Shown here piece after piece: positions 7,267-57,680 of a stretch of 64,000 bases of DNA. Positions within the stretch are counted from its first letter, which is position 1. Each line of letters opens with the position of its first letter. Under the pieces are notes generated by a model that worked only from the letters and a program-made list of their open reading frames with translations, was not told the origin of the DNA and made no database searches. This DNA is from Methanocella sp. (GTDB taxonomy: Archaea; Thermoproteota; Bathyarchaeia; Bathyarchaeales; Bathycorpusculaceae), in contig JBLNCY010000018.1 in NCBI GenBank assembly GCA_050261115.1, forward strand, positions 1 to 64,000, read 5' to 3'. The position numbers and the translations under genes were made by a program.

Positions 7267-7305
7267 CTATATATAAGGGAGGGGGGTCCCTCGGCAGAGC
7301 AACAG
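7267..7305 (+). repeat. Dispersed intergenic repeat, copy 1
   Basis: ctatatataagggaggggggtccctcggcagagcaacag; matches copies at 19235, 23036, 44456 and 47381. Confidence 0.9.
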
Positions 7306-7609
7306 ATAATTTTCAGCAATAATCGAGTTTTTGCATGGTGCCTAACCCGTAAGTCACATTTTTAGAGTCAAAAACCCTACCTAGAAAGCTAAAAACCCCT
7401 AAAGCACGCCACCATCCCGTGCCTGATGGCAAACTATAAAAGACTAAACGGCGCTAAGAGTTTTTACACCTCATGGCGTTCGAATAGGTTCCTCGCCGGA
7501 ACATTCACTGGACCAACCACTTAGTCAGTTAAGAGTAAAATCTTAGTTCTGATACGGAAAGCCATATAAATTGCTTTTACGTGTTTGATTGCGCATCGGA
7601 GAAATAAAA

Positions 7610-8095
7610 ATGCCAAAATGGGGATACTCAATAATCAACGAAATGCTTAATCCAGAAAAAACAGCGAAAGCCAGCGGCCGAGAACTAAAGGTATCCCACA
7701 AAGCCGCCCGGGAAGTCGCTAAAGCCATAAGAGGCATGGATCTAGACCAAGCAAAAGATTTCCTAAGAGATGTTATTGCCAAAGCCAGGCCTGTCCCGTA
7801 CACCAGATTCACAAAGAAACTAGGTCACAAGGGAGGCATGCAAAAATGCGGAGTCGGCAGATACCCAGTCAAATGTGCCGACGCCTTCCTGCGTGTTCTG
7901 CAAGCCGCACAAGCTAACGCAGAAAACAAAGGCTTAGACGTAGATCGCCTAAGAGTCATGCATAGCGCCGCATATCCAGGCGTAAAACTAAAGCGCTACA
8001 TGCCAAGAGCACACGGCAGAGCATCACCTAAATTCGAAATCACCACACACGTTGAAATCGTGCTCGAAGAGAAACAATCCGCAGGAGAACAATAA
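7610..8095 (+). CDS. rpl22: 50S ribosomal protein uL22
   Basis: MPKWGYS, GRYPVK, RAHGRASPK. Confidence 0.97.
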   Translation: MPKWGYSIINEMLNPEKTAKASGRELKVSHKAAREVAKAIRGMDLDQAKDFLRDVIAKARPVPYTRFTKKLGHKGGMQKCGVGRYPVKCADAFLRVLQAAQANAENKGLDVDRLRVMHSAAYPGVKLKRYMPRAHGRASPKFEITTHVEIVLEEKQSAGEQ

Positions 8096-8096
8096 A

Positions 8097-8885
8097 TTGA
8101 GCATCGTTAAAAGATTCATAACTGAATCCATCAAAAAAACCGAAATAGACGAATTTCTAGAAAGAAAACTTGAAAGAGCTGGATATGGCGGAGTAAACAT
8201 CTCCAAAACCCCATTAGGCACACACGTAGTCATCTATGCCATGCGGCCTGGATTGGTTATCGGCAGAGGCGGAGAAACCATCAAGGAACTCGCCGCTTCA
8301 CTTGAGCATAACTTCAAAGTTTCCAACCCTCAGATCAGCGTATCAGAAATCGAAGTTCCAGAATTCAACGCAAAAGTCATCGCCAACCGAGTTGCATCAG
8401 CACTTGAACGTGGCGTCCACTTTAGACGCGCAGGCTTTTGGGCACTAAACCAAGTCATGGAAGCAGGCGCACTTGGATGCGAAATCGTCATCAGCGGTAA
8501 ACTTACCACCGAACGTGCACGTTTCGAAAAATTCCGTGCAGGTCACTTCCCAACTGTGGGTGAACCGGCATTGCGCGCCATTAAAACCGCCGAGGCACAC
8601 ATACAACTCAAACCCGGTATGATCGGCGTAAGAGTCAAAATCATGCCTCCGGATGCATACTTCCCAGACAAAGTCTCCATCATGGAGGCAAAACCTGAAG
8701 AGGAAGAAACCATCGTAGTCACACAAGAACCAACACCCGCTCCAACTCCAGCACCTGCTCCTGCACCAGAACCCGAAGCAGCCCCCGTACCAGCAGCAGA
8801 AACAGCCGAAAAGCCCCAAGCCCCAGCTGAGCCCCAAGCAGAAGCACCCGCAGAACAAGCTAAACCAGCGGAGGAAAAACAGTAA
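8097..8885 (+). CDS. rps3: 30S ribosomal protein uS3 with Pro/Ala/Glu-rich tail; TTG start
   Basis: KH domain RPGLVIGRGG, GALGCEIVISGKL. Confidence 0.97.
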   Translation: MSIVKRFITESIKKTEIDEFLERKLERAGYGGVNISKTPLGTHVVIYAMRPGLVIGRGGETIKELAASLEHNFKVSNPQISVSEIEVPEFNAKVIANRVASALERGVHFRRAGFWALNQVMEAGALGCEIVISGKLTTERARFEKFRAGHFPTVGEPALRAIKTAEAHIQLKPGMIGVRVKIMPPDAYFPDKVSIMEAKPEEEETIVVTQEPTPAPTPAPAPAPEPEAAPVPAAETAEKPQAPAEPQAEAPAEQAKPAEEKQ

Positions 8886-9182
8886 ATGGCCCCAATAATG
8901 CGTATAAAAGACATTGCGGAAATGAGCCCTGAAGCACGTGAACAACGCCTCATCGAACTCAAAGTTGAGTTAGCGCGCATCCGCACCATGATTAAGGCAG
9001 GAGGCGCCGTTGAGAACCCAACCCGTGTCCGCCAAATCCGCAAAACAATCGCACAGATATTAACTGTTCAAAACGAACAAGCACTAGGGCTAAGAAAAGC
9101 CGCAGCTTCAGAAAAGAAAGCGGCAAAGCCAAAGAAGGCTAAGCCCAAAAAAGAAGCAACTGAGGAGAAAGCTTCCGAATGA
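8886..9182 (+). CDS. rpl29: 50S ribosomal protein uL29
   Basis: GGAVENPTRVRQIRKTIAQILT; operon position. Confidence 0.95.
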   Translation: MAPIMRIKDIAEMSPEAREQRLIELKVELARIRTMIKAGGAVENPTRVRQIRKTIAQILTVQNEQALGLRKAAASEKKAAKPKKAKPKKEATEEKASE

Positions 9183-9460
9183 AAGTAACTCCTGATATCC
9201 TCCGTTATGAATTCATCGGGACAAAAGGTCTAGTTGCAGCCAGCCAAAACAGTAACCTGATAGGTGTAGGCGGCCTAGTAGTAGGCGAAACACGGAACAC
9301 CTTCTTATTCCAGCAGGAAGGTCTAACACGCAGCGTAATCAAGGAAGCTGCAACATTCTATTTCACTTTCAATGACGAAACAGTCGTTGAGATTGACGGT
9401 AAACTCTTAGTTGGCCGCTCAGAAGATCGGCTTAAGAAAAGCGTAAAGAGGTTATGGTAA
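9179..9460 (+). CDS. rnp1: Ribonuclease P protein component 1 (Rpp29/POP4)
   Basis: EFIG, GLVVGETRNT and IDGKLLVGRSEDRLKK; lies between uL29 and uS17. Confidence 0.93.
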   Translation: MKVTPDILRYEFIGTKGLVAASQNSNLIGVGGLVVGETRNTFLFQQEGLTRSVIKEAATFYFTFNDETVVEIDGKLLVGRSEDRLKKSVKRLW

Positions 9461-9461
9461 T

Positions 9462-9782: not shown

Positions 9783-9783
9783 A

Positions 9784-10227: not shown

Positions 10228-10238
10228 GTGTAAAGATA

Positions 10239-10706: not shown

Positions 10707-10708
10707 GT

Positions 10709-14160: not shown

Positions 14161-14161
14161 G

Positions 14162-17188: not shown

Positions 17189-17494
17189 ATGCAGAAGTGG
17201 GCAGATTACTTAATTTCCGCCGTAAGATCCAAGGCCGGTAGCCCTACAGTTGACACCCTAGAAGTACACTCTGACTTTGGCAACATGGTCTGCGAAACCT
17301 CAATCGTTTCACGAGCAGAGGTAATTGCTAACATAAAACGAGGCGTCAGCTACACCACCGTTTTCCGAACAGCCATGGGCAAATGGCGCAAAGGTGACGA
17401 TGTACACTTGGTCACTGTGGATGGCAAGGAATACCTGCGGACTGACAGCGACTTGATTGCCAAAGACCAATTCGACGACGTCCCAGAACTATAA
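17189..17494 (+). CDS. DUF3892-like small protein
   Basis: KWADYLISAVR...GKEYLRTD...DDVPEL pattern; GGTGA SD. Confidence 0.7.
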   Translation: MQKWADYLISAVRSKAGSPTVDTLEVHSDFGNMVCETSIVSRAEVIANIKRGVSYTTVFRTAMGKWRKGDDVHLVTVDGKEYLRTDSDLIAKDQFDDVPEL

Positions 17495-19090: not shown

Positions 19091-19234
19091 AATCCTTATT
19101 CCCTGCTTATCTAAGATATTAGTTAGCTATTTTCATCGATGTCAATATCTGATTAATCCTCTTTAAAAAATCTGGATTTGCTGAGGCAGGAGGCTATGCT
19201 GGCAGCTTCAAATGTAGGTTCAACCCGCCATTGA

Positions 19235-19272
19235 CTATATATAAGGGGGGAGATCCCTCGGCAGAGCAATAG
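19235..19272 (+). repeat. Dispersed intergenic repeat, copy 2
   Basis: ctatatataaggggggagatccctcggcagagcaatag. Confidence 0.9.
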
Positions 19273-19363
19273 AGGCCGCTTGACCCTCTGGAGGTATCAT
19301 AAATGGCCTCATGTATGATAAAGGCTAAATCCTTAGCGCTTACTTTACAATACGGGTGTAAGC

Positions 19364-22273: not shown

Positions 22274-22984
22274 ATGAGCATCCTAATCGAGCAGCTTCGC
22301 GAAGACTTAAGAGCAAACGCGGATGAGTCCGCCAGGCAATCTGCAAAGCGGTACTTTAAAGAATAAATCAAGACCTATGGCGTCAAAACCGGCACCGTGG
22401 GCAAAATTGCCCGGAAATTCTGGTCCCAGGTCAAAGTTAAACCTAAACAAGAAATTTTTGCGCTCTGTGAAGAACTCTACCAATCGGGCTACATGGAGGA
22501 AGCTTTTGTCGTCTCCGAGTGGATGCCCCATTACATGGAAAACCTCGATGCAGTTGATATAGTAACGTTTAGGCGATGGATCGACAGCTACGTCACTAAC
22601 TGGGCGGAATGCGACGGCTTTCCTAACCATACCATCGGTGGCTTAATCGAGAGGTACCCCGAAGTTGTGGTGGAAGTTATAAGCTGGGCGAGAAGCCCAA
22701 ACCGCTGGTTAAAACGCGCCTCGGCAGTCTCATTCATTATTCCTGCAAAATGCGGCGAATTCCTAAATGAAGCCTTTGAGATTTGCAATATTCTGCTCCT
22801 CGATGGGGACGATTTGGTTCAGAAGGGTTATGGGTGGCTTCTAAAGGAGGAAAGCCGGCTGCATCAAAAGGAAGTGTTTGATTACGTGGTTAAGAACCGC
22901 AAAGTCATGCCAAGAACTGCACTACGTTATGCGATTGAGTTGATGCCTAAAGAACTCAAGTCGGAAGCTATGAAGAAACCATAG
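22274..22984 (+). pseudogene. AlkD-like DNA alkylation repair protein with in-frame TAA at 22364
   Basis: MSILIEQLREDL...RYFKE*IKTYGVKT is in frame with NWAECD, WARSPNRWLKRAS, LVQKGYGWLLKE and MPRTALRYAIE. Confidence 0.8.
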
Positions 22985-23035
22985 CGGGTTAGGTTCCCAG
23001 GCAGGTATGTCGTCAGTTTAGTGATGCGGCAGATA

Positions 23036-23072
23036 CTGTTGCTTTGCCGAGGACTCCCTCCCTTATATATGG
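23036..23072 (-). repeat. Dispersed intergenic repeat, copy 3
   Basis: Reverse complement reads ccatatataagggagggagtcctcggcaaagcaacag. Confidence 0.9.
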
Positions 23073-23242
23073 ACTCAGCAACTGCAGACAGTGGCGGCGT
23101 ATATTTGGCTGGTTGCTGGTTTTTAGCGGCAGAGACTGTGTGGCTGCAGACGGCTAGAGTGGTTGGCTGCACATTTGTTCCCCGGTAAATCGCGCCGATG
23201 CCAAGCGCTGTAGATACCTCGAGACACGCCACATACTACTCT

Positions 23243-23743
23243 CTAAAGAGTCACATGAGCTTTTTTCAATTTCTTGAAGTTGAGAAGCGCACCTATGACT
23301 ATGACAACCACTACTAAAGTCACTATAAGGTATAGAGTGGGGAAAGGCGGCAGTTGCACATTGAAATTTATTGAGCAGGCGGCAACGTTTCCATATGTGT
23401 CATTGGTAAAGGCCGTTATTGTGTGAGAGCCATCTGGAAGGTCATTGATTGTTTGGTTACCACTTAAAGTTACGTTTGCTTTTCCATCAACACTGTAGCC
23501 TGCCCAGCTAATTGCTCTATCCACGGTGAAAACCAATGGAACACTAGACCCATTAAACGTTTGATTTTGGGGAGATAAAACCGAAAGGGTTGGGCGAATT
23601 GTGCCGTAACCTACGGGTAAATATTGCTGAACTAAATTGAACTGAGTTTCGGTGGCAGTTACCGAATTCATGTTGCTCGTAATTACCGTTCCCCCCATTA
23701 TGTAGAGCTTGTGCTCGCCTGGGGGTTCCATGTCAATATGCAC
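23243..23743 (-). pseudogene. C-terminal remnant of a surface protein (last kelch-like blade, Ig-like domain, TM anchor)
   Basis: KLYIMGG, SPQNQTF, GYSVDGKANVT, GSHTITAF..DTYGN, TM with Lys tail; no signal peptide. Confidence 0.55.
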
Positions 23744-30917: not shown

Positions 30918-33752
30918 TTACTGAAATGGTTTTATTAGGCCTCTCTTTTCCTTGATGCTCGCTTGAGCTGCTGCTAAACGCGCGATAGGTACACGGTAGG
31001 GTGAGCAGCTTACATAGTCTATGTTGATTCTGTGGCAAAACTCTATAGAGGAGGGTTCGCCGCCATGTTCGCCACAGATGCCGACTTTAAGGTCCGGTCG
31101 GGTTCTGCGCCCCCACTCTACCGCTATAGCCATGAGCCTGCCGACGCCCTTTACGTCGAGGATTTCAAAGGGGTTATCTTGAAGAATCTTGTGCTCATTA
31201 TAGAAGGGTAAAAACTTGTTTTCAGCGTCCTCTCTTGAGAAACTAAAAGTAGCCTGCGTCAGGTCGTTTGTGCCAAAACTAAAGAATGCCGCTGTTTCAG
31301 CAAGTTTTCCAGCCCGCATACATGCACGCACCACCTCAATCATCGTTCCAACACTGTAGGGCACATCGATTTCTATGCGCTCTTTCACCCGTTTCTCTAC
31401 GCGTCGAATCATCGCAAAGACACGGTTGAGTTCTTGGCTGGTACAGACCTGTGGAATCATGATTTCCACCTTTATGGGCACCGTCTCTTTGATTAGTTTA
31501 CCCGCTGCAACGAGTATGGCTTCGATTTGCATCTCATAAATCTCGGGGTAAGTGATGCCTAAGCGGACGCCCCGGTGGCCAAGCATGGGGTTTACTTCTC
31601 GGAGGGTTCGGATTTTTTGGAGTGTTGCGACTTTTCGTTTGAGCTGGAAGGACTGGATTTCTGCGAGGTTCTTTAGCATATGTTCGTCTTCAGTTAACAT
31701 GGCCTCCAATGAGGGGTCGATGTCACGTAGCAGTTCGGGGATGTTACATACTTGGGCTAGGGCTTCTTGGCATTTTTCGAGTTTGGCAATTTCCCGCTGG
31801 ATTTCCTCCTCGGAGGGCAAAAACTCATGTAGCGGCGGATCAAGCAGGCGAATCGTAACAGGGTTGCCTTGCATTACCCGCAAAATTTCCTCAAAATCTT
31901 TTTCCTGTAGCGGCAACAGCTTGGCCAAAGCATCCATCCGTGCATCTAATGTATCCGCCAGGACCATCTCTTGGAAGATACCTATGCGGTCGGCGGCGTT
32001 AAACATGCGTTCCGTTCGGCAAAGTCCCACGCCTTCTGCACCAAATCTCAGCGCTTTCTCAGCATCTTGGGGAGTGTCGGCGTTGGCCCGAACGCCCAAT
32101 CGGCGAAACTCGTCTGCCCACTCAAGAACCGTCTGCATGTCTTGCCCCATTTCTGGCTCTACCATCTTAATCTCTCCAAGCCAGACATTGCCTGAGGTGC
32201 CATCGATGGTTATGGTTGTGCCCTGGACTAGTTTTACGGTGCCTGCCATGGCGGTTTTTTCAAAGTTATCGATTTTAATGTCACCTGCACCTGAAACGCA
32301 TGGCTTACCCATACCACGCGCAACCACCGCCGCGTGACTGGTTTTACCACCCACAGATGTGAGGATTCCTTGTGCAGCGAAGAATCCGTGAATATCCTCG
32401 GGTTTGGTTTGCTCTCGGACAAGGATGACTTTCTTGCCTGCTTTGGCTTGCCGTTCGGCTTCATCCGCGTCAAACACCACTTCACCCGAAGCTGCCCCCG
32501 GTGATGCGCCTAAACCTCTGGCGATTGGGGGTACCGTGTTTTTTGGGTCTATTTGGCAATACATAAGCTGCGTCAGCGAGGACGGATTTAAGCGAAGCAG
32601 AGCATCTTCTTCGGTCAGTAGGCCTTCGTTGACCATGTCTACGCTGGTTTTTAGGCTTGCGGTGGCGTTCATTTTTGCGTTGCGGGTTTGGAGTAAGTAG
32701 AGCTTGCCTTCCTGGATAGTAAACTCCATGTCCTGTGGCTCCCGAAAGTGCCGCTCGAGTGTTTCTCGCACTTTGGAGAGTTCCTCATACATCTTTGGCA
32801 TCGTTTGCTGCATTTCAGAGATGGGTTTAGGCGTACGGATCCCCGCAACAATGTCCTCGCCTTGTGCCTTATCCAAGTAATCCCCAAATAGCACATTTTC
32901 GCCAGTGCCGGGGTCACGCGTGAAGGCGACGCCTGTCGCGGAGTTATCTCCCAAGTTGCCGAACACCATGGCTTGGACGTTGCAGGCAGTGCCATTGGCG
33001 ATTTTGGGTGTGATTTTGAATTCGCGTCGATAGTCGATGGCGCGTTTGCCGTTCCAAGATGAGAATACCGCCTCGATTGCCATGTAGAGTTGCTGGTAGG
33101 GGTCCTGCGGTAGGGCTCTACCCGTGTTTTCCAGTATGATGCCCTTGAAGATATCAACTAATTCATGGAGGTCTTGCGCTGTTAAGTCAAGGTCGCCTTT
33201 GGCATTGCGGTCTTCTTTTAGTTTCTCCATAGCTAAATGAAAATCGTCGTCTGACACGTTTAGCACGATATTGCCGAATAGTTGGATGAATCGTCGGTAA
33301 GTATCCCAGCCGAATCGTTCATCCCCACTTCGCCTAATAAGACCCTGAACAGTACAGTCATTTATACCCAGATTCAGAACTGTATCCATCATGCCCGGCA
33401 TAGAAATTGCGGCGCCACTGCGAACCGAAACAAGCAGCGGATTATCTGGGTTGCCAAAGCCTAAGCCCATTGCATTCTCAACCTCCGCCATAGCCGCCTG
33501 TACCTGACCAACTAATCCAGGGGGGAACTGGAAGCCATTATCAAAGTACTCAAGACAGGTCTCAGTAGTTATTACAAATCCAGGGGGAACGGGGAGACCG
33601 ATCTGGGTCATTTCACAAAGCCCCGCACCTTTGCCGCCCAGCAACTTCTTGTCTTTGCCGTTACCTTCATGGAAAAGATAGACGTATTTTTTTGAGGTCT
33701 GGGCTTGTTTTCGTTGTTGAGTATAGCTTTGGCTAGAGTTTTGTTTAAACAA
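30918..33752 (-). CDS. ppdK: Pyruvate, phosphate dikinase
   Basis: LGGKGAGL, SVRSGA..SMPGMMDT, GGKTSHAAVVARG, GLCRTE, FGTNDLTQ, GICGEHGG. Confidence 0.97.
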   Translation of the reverse strand: MFKQNSSQSYTQQRKQAQTSKKYVYLFHEGNGKDKKLLGGKGAGLCEMTQIGLPVPPGFVITTETCLEYFDNGFQFPPGLVGQVQAAMAEVENAMGLGFGNPDNPLLVSVRSGAAISMPGMMDTVLNLGINDCTVQGLIRRSGDERFGWDTYRRFIQLFGNIVLNVSDDDFHLAMEKLKEDRNAKGDLDLTAQDLHELVDIFKGIILENTGRALPQDPYQQLYMAIEAVFSSWNGKRAIDYRREFKITPKIANGTACNVQAMVFGNLGDNSATGVAFTRDPGTGENVLFGDYLDKAQGEDIVAGIRTPKPISEMQQTMPKMYEELSKVRETLERHFREPQDMEFTIQEGKLYLLQTRNAKMNATASLKTSVDMVNEGLLTEEDALLRLNPSSLTQLMYCQIDPKNTVPPIARGLGASPGAASGEVVFDADEAERQAKAGKKVILVREQTKPEDIHGFFAAQGILTSVGGKTSHAAVVARGMGKPCVSGAGDIKIDNFEKTAMAGTVKLVQGTTITIDGTSGNVWLGEIKMVEPEMGQDMQTVLEWADEFRRLGVRANADTPQDAEKALRFGAEGVGLCRTERMFNAADRIGIFQEMVLADTLDARMDALAKLLPLQEKDFEEILRVMQGNPVTIRLLDPPLHEFLPSEEEIQREIAKLEKCQEALAQVCNIPELLRDIDPSLEAMLTEDEHMLKNLAEIQSFQLKRKVATLQKIRTLREVNPMLGHRGVRLGITYPEIYEMQIEAILVAAGKLIKETVPIKVEIMIPQVCTSQELNRVFAMIRRVEKRVKERIEIDVPYSVGTMIEVVRACMRAGKLAETAAFFSFGTNDLTQATFSFSREDAENKFLPFYNEHKILQDNPFEILDVKGVGRLMAIAVEWGRRTRPDLKVGICGEHGGEPSSIEFCHRINIDYVSCSPYRVPIARLAAAQASIKEKRGLIKPFQ

Positions 33753-37438: not shown

Positions 37439-37568
37439 AGCTCCTCTGCTCTGAAATAGGGCCCCTCTCTTATTTTTAGGGGAAATGGTTGTCTGTTCCA
37501 TGAGGCAGGAAAAGGCATACGCTGGCGTTATCTTTTAAACAAATAAAATGAAAGTAAAAATTAATTAA

Positions 37569-38030
37569 TTATTGGTTTTCAGCCGAGTAAACAGTAACGT
37601 TGCCGTCGCTGTCTTTGGTGACACGGACTTTGATTTTGCGTGGCGGCTTCTCGATTCCACGTCCCCAAACCAACTCATTAACCTCTGGGCTAATGATAAG
37701 TTTCGGTAACTCTTCGGCCTCTTCCTCGTCGCTGACTTTCATGTTCATCTTCATGTGTCTAACGACAAAGGCTTTGAGCAGCTGCATGGCGCGTGGAGTG
37801 CGCTTGTTGGGTGGACGAGCCAAGGCTTTCTGGAGAGGTATAGTGTAGTATCTTTCCTCAACGACTTCTTCCTCTTTCTTTTTGCGTGTGGGCTTTGCTT
37901 GCTCAACGGGGGCTTCTAGGGTTTGGGGTGCTTCTGCTGGGGTAACTTCTGCGGTTTGAGGTTGCTCAGTAACTTCCTCTGCTAATTCGGCTTCTTGTGG
38001 AATTTGTTCTTGTTTTACTTCTTGTGTCAT
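37569..38030 (-). CDS. rpl31e: 50S ribosomal protein eL31 with acidic N-terminal extension
   Basis: ERYYTIPL, RTPRAM, VNELVWGRGIEKPPRKIKV. Confidence 0.95.
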   Translation of the reverse strand: MTQEVKQEQIPQEAELAEEVTEQPQTAEVTPAEAPQTLEAPVEQAKPTRKKKEEEVVEERYYTIPLQKALARPPNKRTPRAMQLLKAFVVRHMKMNMKVSDEEEAEELPKLIISPEVNELVWGRGIEKPPRKIKVRVTKDSDGNVTVYSAENQ

Positions 38031-44149: not shown

Positions 44150-44401
44150 ATGAGTGAAAGCAAAATTGACGCGTTATTTAGAGATAGACGGGCTTTTTTG
44201 AGGCAATCAACCAAAGACTACGCTTTAGGCGGCAACAACATGCTAGATGACATCGAGGGCGTATTGAAGGAGGCGAAGGCGGAGCTGTTTCATAATCTAG
44301 AGCTTGCCAGCTGCCTAAGAGAGGAAAGCGAGGAGGCATACCAGAAAGAGTGCCTAAGCATGTATGCAGCTTGGGTAGCAAAATGGTTCGGAACACCATA
44401 A
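44150..44401 (+). CDS. Hypothetical protein
   Basis: 83-aa helical ORF following ogg. Confidence 0.55.
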   Translation: MSESKIDALFRDRRAFLRQSTKDYALGGNNMLDDIEGVLKEAKAELFHNLELASCLREESEEAYQKECLSMYAAWVAKWFGTP

Positions 44402-44425
44402 CCCATAAAAATTTTTAAACAACCT

Positions 44426-44489
44426 CCCAAGCCTTAGTTGAACCCCTGGTTGACTCTATATATACGGGAGGAATCTCTCGGCAAAGCAG
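44426..44489 (+). repeat. Dispersed intergenic repeat, copy 4 (extended form)
   Basis: cccaagccttagttgaacccctggttgactctatatatacgggaggaatctctcggcaaagcag. Confidence 0.88.
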
Positions 44490-44501
44490 TAAGCGTATTC
44501 C

Positions 44502-44933
44502 ATGCCAAAAGAAAGTAGCCTAGAGGCTTTTATTCTCCGCAAACAAACTAGTCATGGTGATTTTTTGTCAGCCTCACTTAACACAGAAAGCGAATGGAAT
44601 TTCCGCAAACTCGACAAACGCTTAGTCACGGTTAAATCGAAAGCGCCAAGTGTCGGCAAAGTGGCGGTTCTAGACGCCCAAACCAACATCCTCTTTATGG
44701 TGCAGGTTAACCCCGGCGTATCCGCAACCCCCATAGAGCAGCTAGAAATCGGCAAAGAATACCTCTTCAACCTTAAAGTGGAAACCTCAAAAGACCTCTC
44801 CGGCGTCAAAGCCGATGCAGTCAGCTTCTTTGAAGCCCTCGACATAGACCAAACCACAGAGGACTTTATCAAAGCGTACTGGCTCTATCCCACCAAAGTA
44901 AGGTTCCAACTAACAGAAGTCGAAGAACCCTAA
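44502..44933 (+). CDS. Hypothetical protein
   Basis: 143-aa ORF starting 13 bp after repeat copy 4. Confidence 0.65.
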   Translation: MPKESSLEAFILRKQTSHGDFLSASLNTESEWNFRKLDKRLVTVKSKAPSVGKVAVLDAQTNILFMVQVNPGVSATPIEQLEIGKEYLFNLKVETSKDLSGVKADAVSFFEALDIDQTTEDFIKAYWLYPTKVRFQLTEVEEP

Positions 44934-44939
44934 AGGTGT

Positions 44940-45845
44940 TTAGCGGAGGACCATGTTGACGAATTTTTCGGGGTTAAACAATTCGAGGTCCTTGTAGGTT
45001 TGGCCGACTCCGATGAATAGTATGGGTTTCTTTGTTACAAAAGTCACGCTTAGCGCGGAGCCGCCTTTGACGTCTGCGTCTACTTTGGTGAGGATGGTTG
45101 CGTCGATGCCGACTGCCTTGTTGAATTCTTCGGCTTGCATGACTGCATCGTTGCCGATGAGGGAGTCGACGGTGAATATGGTAAAGTCTGGCTTAACGAC
45201 CCGTTTAACCTTGGTTAACTCGTTCATCAGGTTCTGGTTAGTCTGCATGCGGCCTGCAGTGTCGATTAAAACTATGTTGATTCCGTGTGCTTTGGCGTGG
45301 TTAACTGCGTCGTATGCTACTGCTGCGGGGTCGCCGCCGTAGGTGCTTTTGATTACCCGTATGCCTAAGCGTTTGCCATGCTCCTCTAGCTGCTCAATTG
45401 AGCCCGCCCGGTAGGTGTCTGCGCCTGCGAGCACGCCGGAGTAGCCTTTTTCCTGGAAGAACTTGGCTACTTTGGCTATGGTGGTGGTTTTACCCGTACC
45501 GTTAATACCTATAAACATCAGCACTAGGGGCTCTTTTTTGCGGCGTTTCTCCTCTGCCTTCTGTAGCAGGTCTATCCGCTCGTTGGTTAACATAACTTCC
45601 AGCAGAACCTGACGCAGGTTGTCATTAACGATTTGTTTGCGGTCTTCAAGCCGCTTAACCTGCACACCATCTAAGCGTGCGGCGAGGTCATCGCAGATTT
45701 TATCTGCCACAGGAAACGCAACGTCATTCTCCACTAAGCTCATCTTAAAATCGGATAAAATAGGTGTTAGGTTTTCAGCTTTAAGTTCGGTTGTGGTGAC
45801 TTTGGTGACTAAGCCTTTGAAACCGGACTTTAGCTTCTCAAACAT
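44940..45845 (-). CDS. ftsY: Signal recognition particle receptor FtsY
   Basis: GINGTGKTTT, DTYRAG, DTAGR, TKVDADVKGG. Confidence 0.97.
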   Translation of the reverse strand: MFEKLKSGFKGLVTKVTTTELKAENLTPILSDFKMSLVENDVAFPVADKICDDLAARLDGVQVKRLEDRKQIVNDNLRQVLLEVMLTNERIDLLQKAEEKRRKKEPLVLMFIGINGTGKTTTIAKVAKFFQEKGYSGVLAGADTYRAGSIEQLEEHGKRLGIRVIKSTYGGDPAAVAYDAVNHAKAHGINIVLIDTAGRMQTNQNLMNELTKVKRVVKPDFTIFTVDSLIGNDAVMQAEEFNKAVGIDATILTKVDADVKGGSALSVTFVTKKPILFIGVGQTYKDLELFNPEKFVNMVLR

Positions 45846-45850
45846 TTGGC

Positions 45851-46291
45851 TTACTGGTTCCCTGCTCTTGATTGCGCAAGCAACGTCTCGAGCCTGCCGC
45901 GTCCGCTGTTGATGCGTTCGGCGATTTGGCTGAATTGTTGCTGAGCGGCGTTCATGGTTTTCTCTAACTCGTCTAAGCGTTCCTTGAGTGTTGCCTTAGC
46001 TTGAGCCAATGGCTGCTCTACGGAGACGCCTGAGCCCATGCCGACGATGACTTTGCTTGAGTCTGCGAGTTTGACTTTGACATATGAGCTGCCGCCAATG
46101 GGAACCAGCATTTCTACGTTCTCTTTCTCTTTTTCTATGCCGTCTAGGGTTGCGTTGGCGTAGGTTAAGTCAGCGATGGCTGCGTTTACCATGCTGATGC
46201 GCTGCTGAAGCATCTCTGCTGTCTGTTCTAGATAGCGCATCTCTACGCTTAGACGGCGGAGTTCCTCTTCGGCTGGTGCTCTCTGAGACAC
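45851..46291 (-). CDS. pfdA: Prefoldin subunit alpha
   Basis: Coiled coils around LVPIGGSSYV, VIVGMGSGVSVE. Confidence 0.95.
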   Translation of the reverse strand: MSQRAPAEEELRRLSVEMRYLEQTAEMLQQRISMVNAAIADLTYANATLDGIEKEKENVEMLVPIGGSSYVKVKLADSSKVIVGMGSGVSVEQPLAQAKATLKERLDELEKTMNAAQQQFSQIAERINSGRGRLETLLAQSRAGNQ

Positions 46292-46292
46292 T

Positions 46293-46523
46293 TTACTCTT
46301 CCCCGGTAACTATTTTTTTAATGATCGGATCCTCGATTTCGTCAGGTGCCAGCTCTTTTGTGCTGATGATTTTTATGTGGCAACGCCGAACACGGTGTTT
46401 GCTGCCGATGTCAGCGTAGATTTTTTCAACAGCATGCTCGCTTTTGTCTGCTAAGACTTCGCGTGTAAATGGAGTCTGGAGCTCTGGCTTTTTGATTTCA
46501 CCGATTATCTTGAAAGCTTTCAT
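46293..46523 (-). CDS. rpl18a: 50S ribosomal protein eL20 (L18Ae/LX)
   Basis: AVEKIYADIGSKHRVRR..IKI. Confidence 0.93.
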   Translation of the reverse strand: MKAFKIIGEIKKPELQTPFTREVLADKSEHAVEKIYADIGSKHRVRRCHIKIISTKELAPDEIEDPIIKKIVTGEE

Positions 46524-47206
46524 GGTTTTTTCTCTTCCTGCACAACATCCAGTGCATTCCCAATTATAAACATCTCGGGTCCAGTTGTCATGGAACCAGC
46601 CACTGCCGCATGGGAATTGGCGATTAAACCCGTCCCGACATAGGGGATGCCGCAGTTTATGGTGCCCACTTCCACGGGGACTTTAAGTATGCTTTCGAGG
46701 GTTTTCTTTTCTTCCTCTTTGAGCATCGGGTGGGCTAGGACGCCTTTGTTGGTTGTGGTGGCTAATGAACCGACATAGGGCAGCGAGGCGATTTCTGTGG
46801 GCACCACTTCTACGTCTAAGGTGTCAGCGATCTTTTTTACGTCGCTGGGTTTTAGGCGTGGGTCAACTACTGCGCCTTTGTCGTTGGCTAAGACGAGGTT
46901 GCCATAGGCGGTTTTTTTGGTTTCCATGATTGTGATGTTGCCTTTGAAGACGGCTTTTATGCGTTCCAGCTCTTCTTGGCGAACCATGCTGGGTAGTAGC
47001 ATACCGTTGGAGTTTGCGCAGGCAAAGGAGCCTACCAGTACGGAGCCGGCGATGGATGTGTAGATGAGTTCGGTTTGGAGCCAGTCGGCGAATTCTTGAG
47101 CTTTCTCCTGCGGAACCATCACAGGGATAACCACCATCTTCTCAGTGGCTAACGAGTATACGCCGATACTGGGGCTTCCAACTATGCTGGATAAGTAAAC
47201 AGTCAA
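46520..47206 (-). CDS. eif6: Translation initiation factor 6; TTG start
   Basis: ANSNG, GNLVLANDKG, GTINCG, ANSHAAVAG..TTGPE. Confidence 0.95.
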   Translation of the reverse strand: MTVYLSSIVGSPSIGVYSLATEKMVVIPVMVPQEKAQEFADWLQTELIYTSIAGSVLVGSFACANSNGMLLPSMVRQEELERIKAVFKGNITIMETKKTAYGNLVLANDKGAVVDPRLKPSDVKKIADTLDVEVVPTEIASLPYVGSLATTTNKGVLAHPMLKEEEKKTLESILKVPVEVGTINCGIPYVGTGLIANSHAAVAGSMTTGPEMFIIGNALDVVQEEKKP

Positions 47207-47380
47207 GAACAGTATTCTCCTGATACGATTAGCGAAAAGTGTCATGCATTCACCCTATTTTAGATTGCGGTTCACTGAACCATTCAAAATGGAGCCACAG
47301 CGCTATTACCTTCGTCGAAGGAATTTAGGGTATAGTTGGCGCTAACTGAAGTATTGGCGTGTGACCCTCTAAAAACAGGT

Positions 47381-47446
47381 CTGTTGCTTTGCCGAGGATT
47401 CCCTCCCTTATATATAGAACCAACCACAGGTTCAACTTAGGCTGGG
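47381..47446 (-). repeat. Dispersed intergenic repeat, copy 5 (extended form)
   Basis: Reverse complement reads cccagcctaagttgaacctgtggttggttctatatataagggagggaatcctcggcaaagcaacag. Confidence 0.9.
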
Positions 47447-54797: not shown

Positions 54798-54832
54798 AGT
54801 TATAAAACCCGTCGTTGTTTCTGTGTGTTTGC

Positions 54833-54908
54833 AGCCCAGTGGTGTAGTGGTCAAGCATAGAGGCCTCTGGAGCCTTTGACAAGAGTTCGAATCTCTTCTG
54901 GGCTACCA
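54833..54908 (+). tRNA. tRNA-Gln(CTG), A1-U72, encoded CCA
   Basis: Acceptor stem agcccag/ctgggct; anticodon arm gaggc-ctCTGga-gcctt; T loop gttcgaatc; TATAAA upstream. Confidence 0.95.
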
Positions 54909-55038: not shown

Positions 55039-55155
55039 TTGGCTGATTTGAAGGGTTGCCCCTTTGGGCAAGACACAAGAAACGACTGTAAAAGCTGCGA
55101 TTACGGCGACAAAAACCACTTCGACCCCGCTTCGGGGCAATGCGTAAAACGCTAA
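55039..55155 (+). CDS. 38-aa Cys-rich micro-protein (not in ORF track)
   Basis: AGGTGA SD then TTG; MADLKGCPFGQDTRNDCKSCDYGDKNHFDPASGQCVKR. Confidence 0.55.
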   Translation: MADLKGCPFGQDTRNDCKSCDYGDKNHFDPASGQCVKR

Positions 55156-56427
55156 CTAGCGCTTTAGCTCGTTCAAGTTCGCGGCGGCAAAGGGCACTAG
55201 CATCTCGTCAGGGCTTAAGCCGCCATGCTGTCCCTGTAGAGGTATTTTTCGTCCGCTGCGGTGCTCAAACCAAAGCGTCTCCCTACCAAGAGGCAAGACC
55301 AGTAGGTTTCCCGTGCGATCAAGAAAGTCCATGCTGGGTTCACCATATCCGAATAGGCCACTTTTGAGGGCTTCTTGCATCTCGACGACTTGGGCTTTAT
55401 GCCCGATGCTTTTCTGAAGCGCCTCCTTGGTTTCCTCAAGTTTATGCGGCTTGACGTGTAGGAATATGTCACGGGGGCTGCCTGTGGGCATGATTTTTTT
55501 GCGGTGTTTGCCGATTTCCGCGTTTTGGATGGGGTGGGAGTTTAGGCTGAGGTAGGTTGTTTGTTGGGGGTCCACTTGTATTTCGCCATGGTCAGCGGTT
55601 ATCAGGAGCAGGGTTTCTTTGGCAGCCTGTGGCGTGATTTTTTCCACTAATTCTTTTTGGAGCAGAAAGGTGATAGCTTCAAGTTCAGCGTTGTATTCCT
55701 CGCTTTGGGGGCCGTATTCGTGGGCGATTGTGTCTAAGGTTTCTATGTGTACAAAGAAGTAGGCGCCGCTGTTTTGCTCTAGGTTTTTTCGTAGCTTGAC
55801 TATGGCATCTGAGGTCTTATGCGAAGATATGATGGTGCTGCCTTCGAAGACCAGTTTTGTGCAGGCGGCAGAGGCGTTGGATTCGTGCATGTGGGTGTAG
55901 GTTTTGATGCCTTCTTCTTCGAGTTTCTGCTGTATGTTTCCGCCGTTGTACATGAGGTGGGGGTCGTATCCCTGCTCGGTTAGCTTGCTCTTTTTGGTGC
56001 TGATGCGCTCGAAGCGGAGGGCGTTGATTATGCCTGTCTCTTTTAGGTAGATGAAGTATTCAAAGAGGCCATGCTGTTGCGGTGTTATGCCTGTGTTTAG
56101 GGTTGTTAGGGCGTTGGTTGTCTGTGAGGGGTAGACGCTTGTTAGGGGGAAGACTTCGCTTGCCTTTGGCAGCTTGTTTAGGAATGGGTTGGTTTTGTGG
56201 TGGTTTAGGTATTGGTTGAAGCCGAAGCCGTCAACTACCAAGAGAACGACTTTGTTGTAGTGCTTTGCGTCAAGGTTTAGCCGTGGGGTTAGCGGCGAAG
56301 CTGGCGCACCTTTGGTGCCAAACAGCTCTAGTATGGTGTCGGGGATGTTGGATATGCAGTTTGTCTGGTATTGGGGATAAACAAAGCCATAAGGTGCCGT
56401 TGGTTGGTCGAGTTTTTCTGTTAACAT
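55156..56427 (-). CDS. Alkaline phosphatase superfamily nucleotide pyrophosphatase/phosphodiesterase
   Basis: VVDGFG, TSVYPSQT, DTIAH, TADHG, GQHGGLS..EM.VP. Confidence 0.9.
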   Translation of the reverse strand: MLTEKLDQPTAPYGFVYPQYQTNCISNIPDTILELFGTKGAPASPLTPRLNLDAKHYNKVVLLVVDGFGFNQYLNHHKTNPFLNKLPKASEVFPLTSVYPSQTTNALTTLNTGITPQQHGLFEYFIYLKETGIINALRFERISTKKSKLTEQGYDPHLMYNGGNIQQKLEEEGIKTYTHMHESNASAACTKLVFEGSTIISSHKTSDAIVKLRKNLEQNSGAYFFVHIETLDTIAHEYGPQSEEYNAELEAITFLLQKELVEKITPQAAKETLLLITADHGEIQVDPQQTTYLSLNSHPIQNAEIGKHRKKIMPTGSPRDIFLHVKPHKLEETKEALQKSIGHKAQVVEMQEALKSGLFGYGEPSMDFLDRTGNLLVLPLGRETLWFEHRSGRKIPLQGQHGGLSPDEMLVPFAAANLNELKR

Positions 56428-56526
56428 GAAGTCGCCGCGTTCTGGTTATGTTGGTTGGTGGTTTGTGATATAAAGTTTGGTGGGTTTTCGGTGAATTCTT
56501 TTATACGGTTTCTGCGTGATTTTGCT

Positions 56527-57411
56527 ATGGGGTCAAGGATGGATATGCAGGTAGTTGCTTTGCCCGACGGTCGGCAACTCGGATATTGCAGCGTAGGCCA
56601 AGGCCGTCCCGTCGTCTATTTTCACGGCACCGCAAGCAGCCGCCTCGAAGCTTTACTCCTAAAAGACATGGCCCAAACCGCAGGCCTCCAGCTCGTCGGC
56701 ATAGACCGACCCGGCTATGGATTATCCAGCTATCGAAAACTCCGCAGCCTCTCGGACTTCAACAGCGACGTAACTTTCCTAGCGGATCAGCTGGGGTTTG
56801 AGCCGTTTAGCGTACTGGGCTGGTCAGGTGGAGGCGCCTTTGCCTTAGCCTACACAGCACAAAACTCACAACGAGTTACCAAAGCAGTCGTTGCGGATGC
56901 GCCCTTTCTGCCCTTTGACGTATCCATGGCTCATGACTTCCCCTTCTCAAAGTACCTCATGAAAATCCCCTATGCAGGCTACTTCGCCATTCACCAACTC
57001 CGCCGCCAAGTGCTCAAAGCCAACGGCAACATCCCAGCCTTCCTCAAATCCAAACAGGCAAAACAGCTATTACGCGGCTACACAGAGTCCGACTTAGAGT
57101 TGTTCTCTGACCCAGCATGGGCGGCTTTGATGTATCAGTCGATGGCTGAAGCGTTTCGGCAAAAAGACGGAGTCAGGGCGGTTGTGGGGGAGCATATGCT
57201 TTTCCTAAAAGACTGGGGCTTCCCCGTCGGGTCAACTCCAGCTGAGAAACTGGTTGTTTGGCATGGCAAAGACGACAAAACAATCGGCGTCCAAAATGGG
57301 GTTGCGCTTGCGGGCTTAGTCGCTGGTTGCAGGCTGGAGGTGTTTGAGGGGAAAGGTCACTGCGCCATGTTCCACTACCCAGACAAACTAGCTGGGGTGT
57401 TACTCGAGTAG
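56527..57411 (+). CDS. Alpha/beta hydrolase
   Basis: FHGT, DRPGYGLS, GWSGGG, WHG.DD, GH. Confidence 0.9.
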   Translation: MGSRMDMQVVALPDGRQLGYCSVGQGRPVVYFHGTASSRLEALLLKDMAQTAGLQLVGIDRPGYGLSSYRKLRSLSDFNSDVTFLADQLGFEPFSVLGWSGGGAFALAYTAQNSQRVTKAVVADAPFLPFDVSMAHDFPFSKYLMKIPYAGYFAIHQLRRQVLKANGNIPAFLKSKQAKQLLRGYTESDLELFSDPAWAALMYQSMAEAFRQKDGVRAVVGEHMLFLKDWGFPVGSTPAEKLVVWHGKDDKTIGVQNGVALAGLVAGCRLEVFEGKGHCAMFHYPDKLAGVLLE

Positions 57412-57594
57412 TTTCCACGGGTCCTCTGGGCCGAGTGTGTCCTCGTTTTTGGGTCGGGCGGTTTGCTGAATTTTTTGCACGGTAACCTTAACGAACGTGT
57501 TGTTGCTGAGTTGTTCGGCGGCGATAGCTTCTTTGGGTATGATAATGACCATTTGGTCGCCGATTTTTCGGAGTTGGGCCGTAAAGGTTTGCAT
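57400..57594 (-). CDS. AbrB/MazE-like small DNA-binding protein
   Basis: LRKIGDQMVIIIPKE...VKVTV. Confidence 0.65.
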   Translation of the reverse strand: MQTFTAQLRKIGDQMVIIIPKEAIAAEQLSNNTFVKVTVQKIQQTARPKNEDTLGPEDPWKLLE

Positions 57595-57660
57595 AGGGAT
57601 TCATGGTGGGGTTTGTAATTAACCGTTACTGCTTTGCGCAGCGTGGTGCTCTCATTTGTG

Positions 57661-57680
57661 CCCCCCTCCCTTATATATAG
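57661..57680 (-). repeat. Dispersed intergenic repeat, partial copy 6
   Basis: Reverse complement ctatatataagggagggggg is identical to the first 20 nt of copy 1. Confidence 0.75.

Follow-up and report, generated by a model that had tools for sequence, protein, structure and literature searches.

The repeat copies found in a 64-kb window (the whole stretch of DNA analysed here) are members of a single family of intergenic elements, modular in build and inserted into the genome, which form inward-facing pairs 1-8 kb apart, usually placed about one operon. Inward-facing pairs around single operons are an arrangement undescribed for prokaryotic repeats. The copies are old (about 65 % alike) yet have retained their core, and comparison of their sequences suggests that purifying selection acts on this core despite the age of the copies. 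The explanation that we favour, with rather less than even confidence, is that the element is a mobile module of promoter type, old and under selection, whose facing pairs bracket transcription units.

Architecture of the element and its copies in the window

A sequence-only reading of the window had claimed six copies, all of which were found in place and on the strand claimed (Table 1). With the 16-mer CTATATATAAGGGAGG and up to three mismatches, seven matches were obtained, namely the six copies (zero to one mismatch) and a decayed seventh at 37464-37479 on the minus strand, against a mean of 0.27 and a maximum of 2 in 100 dinucleotide shuffles. The 3' box CTCGGCARAGCAAYAG is present in copies 1-5, and in copy 6 a longer spacer is followed by GCAAAGCAGTAAC. 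In an Rfam search of the complete window with gathering scores, two tRNAs were the only matches and the element gave none, and a search with copies 3 and 5 and their flanks at E values up to 1 gave no matches.

Table 1. Element copies in the window and the unit bracketed by copies 4 and 5
Feature	Position	Strand	Description
Copy 1	7255..7307	+	Without type A or B arm; TATA box 7268-7276; order GGTTGAGTC, TATA box, AAGGGAGGGGGG, TCCCTC, GGCAGAGCAACAG
Copy 2, type A	19207..19274	+	Arm TTCAAATGTAGGTTCAACCCGCCATTGAC; TATA box 19236-19244
Copy 3, type B	23034..23240	-	TATA box starts 23071; long upstream arm to ~23240
Decayed seventh copy, CTAAAAATAAGAGAGGGGCCCTATTTCAGAGCAGAG	37440..37480	-	Directly 3' of rpl31e
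Copy 4, type A	44427..44493	+	TATA box 44457-44465; left member of facing pair with copy 5
Unit between copies 4 and 5	44457..47416		143-aa gene, ftsY, prefoldin alpha, small ORF, eIF6
Copy 5, type A	47379..47446	-	TATA box starts 47416
Copy 6, atypical	57625..57680	-	TATA and AAGGGAGGGGGG boxes intact, longer spacer, then GCGCAAAGCAGTAAC

From 5' to 3' the element consists of a variable upstream arm, a GTTGAnTC box, a TATA box (TWTAWATA, reading TATATATA in the source genome), an invariant AAGGGAGG(GG) box, 8-12 variable bases and the sequence GCArAGCAACAG, which ends the element about 36 nt past the start of the TATA box; the distance between this 3' box and the TATA box is fixed. Two types of arm occur. 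The type A arm (about 45 nt) contains the palindrome GGTTSAACC and is found in 61 of the 119 copies in the genome, and the type B arm measures about 190 nt. The copies noticed in the sequence-only reading are thus real but longer than first noted, the whole element being about 85 nt with a type A arm and about 200-230 nt with a type B arm, as in copy 3; the extra upstream stretch described as common to copies 4 and 5 proved to be the type A arm. Across species the core reads TATATATA, TTTATATA, TATAAATA or TTTAAATA. Followed by an unchanged AGGGAGG, it is CTTTATATA, CTATAAATA or CTTTAAATA in species other than the source, and its variation is restricted to the A/T positions permitted by the TATA consensus. 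The variable stretch falls into discrete subtypes (e.g. TAGGTCGGCA, 24 copies), which recur in mixed combinations with the two unrelated arms. Mean pairwise identity among copies is about 0.65 over 87 nt, and 62 copies keep the 16-mer within at most one mismatch. Back-to-back copies with one common TATA box occur in the source genome (G000) and in G064, and in G128 two such copies lie 12 nt apart.

The TATA box of copy 1 lies 321 nt (TATA box to start) 5' of the L22 gene, the first of a ribosomal-protein operon, and copy 5 lies 171 nt, measured in the same way, 5' of eIF6, ahead of the eIF6-prefoldin-ftsY operon. The conserved native leader of the eIF6 locus is still present despite copy 5, and 40 of 40 congeners searched have no counterpart of this copy at the same locus. 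An element is found at the place equivalent to that of copy 4 in G062 and G064, and nearby in G128 and G110. Copies 2 and 3 form a facing pair 3.8 kb apart, of which copy 2 is the left member; the arm of copy 3 ends just past the stop codon of a minus-strand gene (23243-23743), and some 50 nt separate its CAACAG end from the stop codon of a convergent DNA-alkylation-repair gene (22397-22984). RNA contigs, which show neither starts nor strands, span copy 3 (contigs from four runs) and copy 4 (one contig, 44352-46539). Copy 6 faces a convergent hydrolase gene whose 3' end is 268 nt off, and copy 3 too aims at a convergent gene end; four of the six copies (1, 2, 4 and 5), rather than the five proposed, aim at a co-oriented downstream gene.

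Copy number, insertion and spread among species

The earlier estimate of well over a hundred copies was borne out, with about 120 in the 2.15-Mb source genome (assembly 94.85 % complete): the 16-mer at up to two substitutions gave 90 matches, nhmmer (E<0.01) gave 122-123, and 119 copies were anchored on their TATA box. The cores of 94 of these 119 are intergenic, and the flanks of different copies are unrelated. Among the 109 copies with both neighbouring genes present, the arrangements of element (E) and genes are >E> in 27, <E> in 25, >E< in 33 and <E< in 24, that is, 52 copies have a co-oriented gene ahead and 57 a convergent one, and between tandem genes antisense copies are as frequent as sense copies.

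The element is very probably inserted mobile DNA. Its description as non-autonomous inserted DNA is backed by filled and empty orthologous sites and by the complete congener G014 (2.68 Mb), in which nhmmer found no matches. Among the 729 strictly adjacent gene pairs conserved between G000 and G014 that lack a copy, the median difference in spacer length is 0 nt (interquartile range -10 to +5), whereas of eight pairs with a copy seven have the longer spacer in G000, by 96, 102, 106, 114, 138, 211 and 215 nt; the filled spacers measure 2-73 nt in G014. Alignment of filled and empty sites shows clean inserts, one of which parts two genes 2 nt apart in G014 and another of which lies between stop codons 6 nt apart. 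Neither target duplications nor terminal inverted repeats were seen at seven aligned filled sites, where the 74 % protein identity between G000 and G014 blurs the junctions. One candidate terminal repeat, picked out by eye, aligns the CAACAG end with the distal end of the type B arm at 9 of 13 positions, with nothing comparable in type A. Copies are located at rearrangement junctions, synteny with G014 being broken in 85 of 102 copy-bearing intervals vs 398 of 1330. The family was found in a few species of one genus of Bathyarchaeia (Bathy-6), the group to which the sequence-only reading had correctly assigned the source genome, and is lacking in about 100 of 120 congeners. Identity to G000 in the eIF6 block is 73-79 % in carriers and 80 % in G014, G046 and G007, which have 0, 5 and 4 matches to the 16-mer, respectively.

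With its length of 85-230 nt, lack of coding capacity, copy number of about 120, lack of a transposase of its own and filled and empty sites, the element has these traits in common with MITEs. MITEs generally have terminal inverted repeats in common with a resident insertion sequence and generate target duplications. Like archaeal MITEs such as the SM elements of Sulfolobus, the element is archaeal, short and non-autonomous and varies in presence between relatives; it differs from them in that our searches turned up neither such repeats and duplications nor a parent insertion sequence. The Correia elements of Neisseria are non-autonomous intergenic inserts of about 100-150 bp present in more than 100 copies, some with promoter activity, which lie at rearrangement junctions and carry 26-bp terminal inverted repeats, a TA target duplication and an IHF site. 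Our element resembles them as a small, non-autonomous intergenic insert in more than 100 copies at rearrangement junctions, promoter-like by sequence, but none of their repeats, TA duplication or IHF site was seen in it, and Correia promoters are of the bacterial sigma-70 type, whereas the element core is a TATA box. We know of no facing pairs at kilobase distance among Correia elements.

Searches of G000 revealed no mobilizing enzyme for the element. There were no matches to IS110, OrfB_IS605 or resolvase domains, and no serine recombinase was found. The only DDE insertion sequence of this genome (contig C55, 1114-2203) is single-copy and did not match the element model even at an E value of 100. 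Three of the five tyrosine recombinase matches have orthologues in the element-free G014, and the two that lack one have homologues in 26 and 12 of 120 genomes, which do not co-occur with the element.

Facing pairs

Neighbouring copies alternate in strand in 62 of 81 cases, a number reached by none of 20,000 strand shuffles. Among the 33 neighbours in G000 that are less than 8 kb apart, 27 face each other, one pair is back to back and five are in tandem; in a second species (G110) the corresponding numbers are 13, 0 and 7 among the 100 of 134 matches listed. A facing partner lies within 15 kb of 68 of 93 uncensored copies in the forward direction and of 18 of 88 in the backward direction; roughly one uncensored copy in four lacks a facing partner over this distance. 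Of 27 back-to-back gaps only one is under 8 kb, the smallest other being 8.7 kb. Facing partners are never closer than 1018 nt and typically lie 2.6-7 kb from each other. Median unit size is 4.7 kb in G000, and the 13 close pairs of G110 (100 of 134 matches listed) give about 4.3 kb; spacing between units is over-dispersed. When gene strings were read by eye, 22 of 32 units had one copy at the 5' end and the other at the 3' end, and 10 of 32 consisted of a single co-directional operon. Arm types are mixed in 12 of the 32 pairs, and partners are 0.658 identical vs 0.650 for random copies (p 0.21). The orientation of a copy is independent of the neighbouring genes and is set by the partner copy.

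Possible roles of the element and its pairs

In the explanation that we favour, the core would be a TBP/TFB-binding promoter module, with GCAACAG as its initiator region, and would have been spread by some non-HUH activity. One copy of a facing pair would read into the 5' end of the transcription unit, and its partner would read back from the 3' end, the resulting antisense or head-on transcription confining or tuning expression of the unit; selection would retain facing pairs and purge close tandem or back-to-back ones. That the core would bind TBP/TFB and fire in vivo is about as likely as not. The archaeal TATA consensus is TTTAWATA, and the core fits this consensus across species. The idea of a portable TATA promoter stands as far as a good archaeal TATA box is concerned, but copies show no bias towards co-oriented genes (52 vs 57) and have no AAAGS box; this purine-rich box precedes the TATA box of tRNA genes in G000 (41 upstream regions, read by eye) and is absent before that of the element, where GTTGAnTC stands instead. 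The position of copies 1 and 5, ahead of the ribosomal-protein and eIF6-prefoldin-ftsY operons, favours the promoter explanation; the median distance of about 130 nt from TATA box to start codon where a copy precedes a gene, and the native leader retained at eIF6, count against it. The copy number of TFIIB domains does not follow the presence of the element. We are doubtful that the pair rule is due to an interplay of transcription and not to the geometry of transposition, recombination or looping, and a transcription-based cause leaves the near-absence of close back-to-back pairs unexplained. Putative mobile promoters, described as homologous promoter-like non-coding DNA before unrelated genes with a patchy distribution in related species (PMC3575422), are similar to the element in all these respects. 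However, sets of them are defined there by position upstream of genes, whereas half of the element copies face gene 3' ends, and the survey contains neither a facing-pair rule nor the word 'orientation' (PMC3575422).

The main rival to the promoter explanation is that the element is the end module, or long asymmetric terminal repeat, or a recombination site of movable or recombining gene modules. Two inward copies would then mark the ends of a 2-7 kb module, made up of ordinary host genes, that a trans-acting transposase or recombinase relocates or flips; the AT-rich core would be the cleavage or crossover region and its likeness to a TATA box incidental or secondary. Inward-pointing ends are the defining geometry of transposons, the facing rule holds in two species, the family is spread patchily over species, and units are at least 8.7 kb apart, which recalls target immunity. 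Both boundaries coincide with synteny breaks relative to G014 in 19 of 30 assessable units, where about 2.7 would be expected at a background of 0.30; however, two units by a strict test, and about five on a map read by eye, lie in synteny unchanged on both sides, and in these the copies came singly around native operons (e.g. contig C6, 95214-99953, and contig C57, 66992-71689). The eIF6 unit has the exact gene content of a block that adjoins rpl31e in relatives, yet in the source genome it lies 6.4 kb from this ancestral neighbour, and the decayed seventh copy, at the spot where eIF6 follows rpl31e in relatives, would have been left behind. Two reciprocal chimeras lie on contig C22, one (arm-TATA-arm') at 17476-17494 and the other (tail'-TATA-tail) at 33674/33681, and reversal of the 16-kb stretch between them gives the G014 gene order 768..783 then 796..801. 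This allows the reconstruction of one putative reciprocal crossover within the palindromic TATATATA core, and the 132 core-model matches yielded no other. Asymmetric recombination sites that bracket segments in inverted orientation are known as the sfx sites of the R64 shufflon and the pdif modules of Acinetobacter plasmids. The element is like these in being asymmetric, with one conserved arm, one less conserved arm and an AT-rich centre, in the few-kilobase segments between oppositely oriented sites and in the one crossover reconstructed inside the core. It differs in that no cognate recombinase was found, that the five units in two-sided synteny (map by eye) keep the G014 orientation, and that partner cores match no more than chance, being identical in three of 13 facing pairs of G110 with about four expected (by eye, among the 100 of 134 matches listed), which is a point against a tyrosine recombinase because such an enzyme needs matching cores. 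Partners are, moreover, no more alike than random copies, with arm types mixed as described above, no transposase or recombinase went with the element in our searches, the seven aligned sites show no target duplication, and about a quarter of uncensored copies are without a facing partner within 15 kb. We consider movable modules rather unlikely.

An architectural or boundary role that depends on orientation is, in our estimation, quite improbable. In this view a protein or TBP/TFB would bind the core, and facing sites would pair, or block a tracking machine (SMC, RNA polymerase), and so set off one transcription unit in a chromosomal domain of 2-7 kb. The facing rule, the characteristic unit size and the over-dispersed spacing are expected of paired directional sites; orientation follows the partner copy and not the neighbouring genes, the core appears to be under purifying selection though the copies are old, and four other species have an element on the corresponding side of the eIF6 block. 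However, the congeners without the element imply that any boundary role is dispensable and lineage-specific, and insertions also split operons, which looks selfish rather than designed. A non-mobile promoter or operator of a regulon, its sites having evolved in place under a lineage-specific regulator, is very unlikely. The core and the palindrome do resemble a TATA box combined with the binding site of some dimeric factor, and divergence outside the core is high, but the sites are 96-215 nt inserts into spacers that are short in G014, the variable-stretch subtypes and the two unrelated arms recur in mixed combinations, which indicates copying rather than convergence, and more than half of the copies (57 of 109) have no co-oriented gene to regulate.

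REPs are hairpins that pair within tens of bases. The element is similar to REP/REPIN, BIME and BOX repeats in being dispersed, intergenic and a modular mosaic of few blocks, in high copy number on both strands, but a REP/REPIN-type repeat copied by a RAYT (IS200-like Y1 HUH) transposase has next to no probability and is ruled out on its testable features: a stem of at least 4 bp is possible in 34 of 119 copies (vs 4.5 % of shuffles) but is limited to some subtypes and occurs in none of the 24 TAGGTCGGCA copies, PF01797 has no matches in the assembly, although the same search was positive in six of 14 control genomes, and instead of close inverted doublets partners are 1-8 kb apart. The conserved mini-hairpin (at least four Watson-Crick pairs) of the sequence-only reading was not upheld; RNAalifold gave no consensus structure, at energy 0, for type A (n=61) or type B (n=25) copies on either strand. 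The RAYT/IS200 TnpA gene flanked by the motif that had been envisaged was likewise not found in the 94.85 %-complete assembly, and of the proposed REP/MITE moved by a HUH (Y1) enzyme the inserted, non-autonomous nature remains, without PF01797, a conserved hairpin, clear terminal inverted repeats or target duplications.

The facing-pair rule keeps a site for a chromosome-organizing protein alive as a reading. More broadly, it is possible, if unlikely, that the element serves as a directional boundary only where two copies face each other, whether to form a loop, an insulated transcription domain or a block-moving host-gene module of 2-7 kb. If so, a loop or insulated domain would parallel, in a prokaryote, the convergent-site rule of eukaryotic loop anchors, and in every variant a facing-pair boundary would have been brought in by a mobile, promoter-like insert.

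Copies, anatomy and distribution of the element

The six copies that the sequence-only reading had noticed in the window are all where it placed them, and a search there with the 16-mer CTATATATAAGGGAGG (up to three mismatches) gives seven matches (shuffled sequences give a mean of 0.27 and a maximum of 2), the seventh being a decayed copy. In the assembly of the source genome, G000 (2,148,294 bp, 66 contigs, of which the window is C18; 47.4% G+C, completeness 94.85%), the 16-mer has 90 matches at up to two substitutions, and an HMM seeded with 62 copies finds 123 matches at E<0.01 (122 when iterated once), which bears out the earlier estimate of well over a hundred copies genome-wide; 119 of the HMM matches are TATA-anchored. 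The boxes of the element follow in the order TATA box, AAGGGAGG box and GCAACAG box. Information content peaks from GGTTG through TCTATATATAAGGGAGGGG and rises a second time at GCAnAGCAACAG, about 28-36 nt past the start of the TATA box. Upstream lies one of two mutually unrelated arms: type A (61 copies; tttCAAGynnrGGTTSAACCyrtGGTTGryTC), whose far end lies some 45 nt upstream of the TATA box, or type B (25 copies, including window copy 3), which extends to about -190, the 25 flanks past -120 having nothing in common by blastn; the other 33 copies lack both arms. Between AAGGGAGGGG and GCA there are 8-12 bases, which form discrete subtypes (TAGGTCGGCA, TCCCTCGGCA, TCCCTGTGAG, TCTATGGCA and TCTAGTGTGAG) that pair freely with either arm. 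Random pairs of copies are on average only 0.65 identical over 87 nt, yet the 16-mer is retained within one mismatch in 62 copies; the copies are old, with the core retained. A base-composition profile of 115 copies, covering about -100 to +80, shows the element strand to be A+C-rich and G-poor (G 0.18-0.20) for about 100 nt either side of the core, and extreme CA-rich runs of more than 100 nt lie downstream of some copies (Table).

The element is inserted DNA. G014, a complete single-contig genome of a congener, has no match to the element model anywhere; it shares 1495 reciprocal best hits with G000, whose median identity is 74% at the protein level, and it is 80% identical to G000 in the eIF6 gene. 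Among the 729 gene pairs that are strictly adjacent in both genomes and lack a copy, the spacers differ by a median of 0 nt (IQR -10 to +5), whereas in seven of eight pairs with a copy the G000 spacer is longer by 96-215 nt, the eighth being 396 nt shorter. The comparison of filled and empty orthologous sites that had been proposed earlier shows, in alignments, clean inserts in G000 relative to G014 (Table), and no target duplication is seen at the aligned sites, whose junctions are blurred at the G000-G014 distance.

The family is real and large, and it is restricted to a few species. Across 120 genomes of the genus, searched with the 16-mer at up to one mismatch, matches are frequent only in G000 (62), G110 (94), G128 (70), G064 (64), G056 (21), G062 (21) and G127 (8), and 100 genomes have none. 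The core of other species is CTTTATATA, CTATAAATA or CTTTAAATA, followed by an unchanged AGGGAGG, the variation being limited to A/T positions tolerated by the archaeal TATA consensus. The element flanks the block formed by the gene at 44502, ftsY, prefoldin and eIF6 in G062 and G064, and lies near it in G128 and G110. Identity to G000 over this block is 73-79% for the carriers and 80% for G014, G046 and G007, which have 0, 5 and 4 matches to the 16-mer; judged by this locus alone, the spread is therefore patchy.

Table. Coordinates of copies, inserts and associated features (contigs are those of G000 unless another genome is named)
Feature	Sequence	Position	Strand	Remarks
Copy 3	window	23034-23240	-	
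Copy 4	window	44427-44493	+	
Copy 5	window	47379-47446	-	
Copy 6	window	57625-57680	-	
Decayed copy	window	37464-37479	-	seventh 16-mer match
rpl31e	window	37569-38030		
eIF6	window	46520-47245		
eIF6 leader	window	47246-47275		loci L014-L032
Insert	C54	19608-19748		G014 spacing of the two genes 2 nt
Insert	C51	46149-46269		between stop codons of convergent genes, spacing 6 nt
Insert	C43	34161-34449		type B, 215 nt, 10 nt past stop codon
Unit in unchanged surroundings	C6	95214-99953		
Unit in unchanged surroundings	C57	66992-71689		
Chimeric copy	C22	17476-17494		arm-TATATATA-arm'
Chimeric copy	C22	33674/33681		tail'-TATATATA-tail
CA-rich run	C58	after 2902		
CA-rich run	C62	after 4105		
Tyrosine recombinase gene	C43	9519-10568		beside tRNA-Leu/Thr
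Tyrosine recombinase gene	C4	1179-2348		beside tRNA-Phe/Val
~860-aa protein family	C6, C8, C10, C13, C16, C20, C23, C45, C46, C47, C51, C56			
Close tandem	G110 C18	219843/219896		
Close tandem	G110 C20	370020/370074		
Element-like copies	L270 (IMG/VR contig)	2280-2500 and 5672-5697		

Facing copies and rearrangement junctions

Copies of the element obey a facing-pair rule. Of 81 pairs of neighbours on the same contig, 62 have their copies on opposite strands, a value reached in none of 20,000 strand shuffles, and the median spacing is 4.7 kb for facing neighbours and 18.4 kb for back-to-back neighbours, none of which are nearer than 8.7 kb save one pair with a common TATA box. Neighbours less than 8 kb apart in G000 comprise 27 facing, five tandem and one back-to-back pair (n=33), and a facing partner lies within 15 kb forward of 68 of 93 uncensored copies and backward of 18 of 88. 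In the carrier G110, 13 facing, seven tandem and no back-to-back neighbours are found below 8 kb among 100 listed of 134 matches. At two loci of this genome, two copies stand in tandem only 53-54 nt apart (Table), a spacing that was not seen for tandems in G000.

The 32 units enclosed by facing copies contain ordinary genes, for example eIF6-prefoldin-ftsY or, in the smallest, an aquaporin gene, and no gene family is common to them. As read from gene strings, 22 units have one copy at a 5' end and its partner at a 3' end, six have both copies at 3' ends and four have both at 5' ends, and ten consist of a single co-directional operon; the codon usage of unit genes is slightly more ribosomal-protein-like (p 0.02). 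The partners are not recent copies of each other, their identity being 0.658 as against 0.650 for random pairs. Our first-ranked hypothesis is that the two copies act as a pair of inward-firing promoters around a transcription unit, which would explain why they face each other.

Alternatively, and ranked second, the copies may be the ends of movable or recombining modules. Copies do sit at rearrangement junctions. In the synteny-break counts (REARRANGEMENTS), 85 of 102 ortholog intervals with a copy are broken relative to G014, as against 398 of 1330 without (odds ratio 11.7, p 1e-26), and with the comparison limited to strictly adjacent genes whose spacers exceed 150 nt, 32 of 41 versus 112 of 220 are broken (p 0.002). 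Of the 30 units that could be assessed, 19 have breaks on both sides, nine on one and two on neither, and units in unchanged surroundings exist too (Table). The unit bounded by copies 4 and 5 equals a block that relatives retain beside rpl31e; in the window it lies 6.4 kb from this gene, just after which there is a decayed copy. On contig C22, two chimeric copies (Table), one joining two arms and the other two tails, enclose a 16-kb stretch whose inversion regains the G014 gene order, the product expected when two direct copies cross over within their palindromic core. A paired boundary site is the third and lowest-ranked explanation of the facing pairs.

Gene order is heavily shuffled in the genus, 483 of 1432 neighbouring G000 ortholog pairs not being neighbours in G014. 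In several congeners rpl31e is directly upstream of eIF6, a linkage that is broken in G000.

Searches by domain, recombinase and TFIIB found no mobilising or binding protein for the element. G000 has no match to PF01797 (Y1), PF01548 (IS110), PF01385 (OrfB_IS605) or PF00239 (resolvase) and two matches, both under the cut-off, to PF07282 (TnpB zinc ribbon); PF04986 (Y2) has none, but also none in the control, so that this search is uninformative. The one insertion sequence matched by PF01609 (DDE) is single-copy and unrelated to the element, and neither of two tyrosine recombinases that lack an ortholog in G014 shows co-occurrence with it. Two further tyrosine recombinase genes, both with G014 orthologs, lie beside tRNA genes (Table), a position that is the usual mark of integrated elements. 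The suggestion of a REP-like repeat moved by a HUH (Y1) transposase is not supported, there being no REP-type hairpin and, in the 94.85%-complete assembly, no RAYT gene. Multi-copy proteins are not transposases but probable surface proteins (17 copies, ~860 aa) and thermosome subunits; the former, the largest paralog family of G000, are at least 50% identical, carry a signal peptide and a C-terminal membrane anchor, and are probably surface or S-layer-type proteins. As to an outside source, no plasmid or phage holds the element by blastn, and 13 viral contigs have one 16-mer match each, a count judged compatible with chance. The sole viral contig with element-like copies, L270 from IMG/VR, has three in tandem, about 70-85 nt apart, facing a fourth across a gene for a 900-aa P-loop (ABC-type ATPase) protein, and may be a Bathyarchaeia chromosomal fragment and not a virus.

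Candidate promoter features and transcripts

Turning to the promoter hypothesis, the core of the element is likely to be a TBP/TFB site. The earlier proposal of a portable TATA promoter is supported in that the core fits the TATA consensus across species, but not by any preference for co-oriented genes. ORFs were called crudely, by greedy choice of the longest ones from 70 aa upward (2216 genes, 86% of the genome). On this gene map 94 of 119 cores are intergenic. When neighbours of 100 aa or more are counted, the four context classes are similar in size (>E< 33, >E> 27, <E> 25, <E< 24), so the element shows no preference for standing ahead of co-oriented genes. From its CAACAG end it is often 0-30 nt to the stop of a convergent gene and about 110-150 nt to a co-oriented next gene. 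Promoters of tRNA genes in G000, read by eye, are AAAGS-TTTAWAT, and the element lacks such a purine box. Counts of TFIIB domains are no guide to the element (4-10 in carriers, 2-14 in other genomes). Immediately 5' of the eIF6 start is a leader, ACCGCAATCTAAAAwAGGrGTATGC, that holds a Shine-Dalgarno-like GGAG/GGTG and is kept in about 20 congeners irrespective of the DNA further upstream.

Two other readings can be dismissed. The conserved mini-hairpin reported earlier is confined to TCCCT subtypes: at least four Watson-Crick pairs are possible in 34 of 119 copies and in none of the 24 TAGGTCGGCA copies, by RNAalifold both strands of types A and B are an open chain with no consensus structure, and the element has no match in Rfam, so that a hairpin or RNA gene is out (ARAGORN and Rfam find only two tRNAs in the window). 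A terminator plus promoter cassette is likewise rejected, since neither the element nor its borders are enriched in runs of at least five T (0.00-0.13 per 20 nt bin, against an intergenic background of 0.083).

The species is found in digester, sludge and compost metagenomes, 14 DNA runs containing at least 0.99 of the sampled words of the window, and six RNA runs, in the form of contigs that reveal neither starts nor strands, include part of the window. In four metatranscriptome runs an RNA contig spans copy 3, its loose ends at 47381 and 47415 being flanks of copy 3 itself, and copy 4 is spanned by one contig (44352-46539). No listed contig covers 47211-47380, the eIF6 leader were copy 5 its driver, or 57412-57640, downstream of copy 6; because contigs cannot show absence, we draw no inference from either stretch. 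The RNA contigs of one run (X18) deviate from the window at several places within 54827-54908, in and just before tRNA-Gln, with two extra letters at 54827, probably reflecting a related strain or species in the sample.

Significance of the element family

Uncultured Bathyarchaeia have, to our knowledge, no genetics, and their promoters, mobile DNA and chromosome organization are almost unstudied. Our literature searches turned up neither repeats of this kind in Bathyarchaeia nor archaeal MITEs with a TATA box, and no description of a comparable orientation rule for prokaryotic dispersed repeats. The two nearest known concepts are mobile promoters (PMC3575422) and Correia elements.

The family offers about 120 natural variants, all within one genome, of a candidate promoter module that can be tested directly. 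The organism abounds in anaerobic digesters, and metatranscriptomes that include it already exist. It is also a clear example of short inserted DNA in a genus of heavily shuffled gene order, four fifths of the intervals with copies being broken. In two species the copies follow a strong orientation rule, facing each other across one operon and shunning back-to-back placement, and any mechanism behind it, be it convergent transcription, transposon-like modules or paired boundary sites, would be new for archaea.
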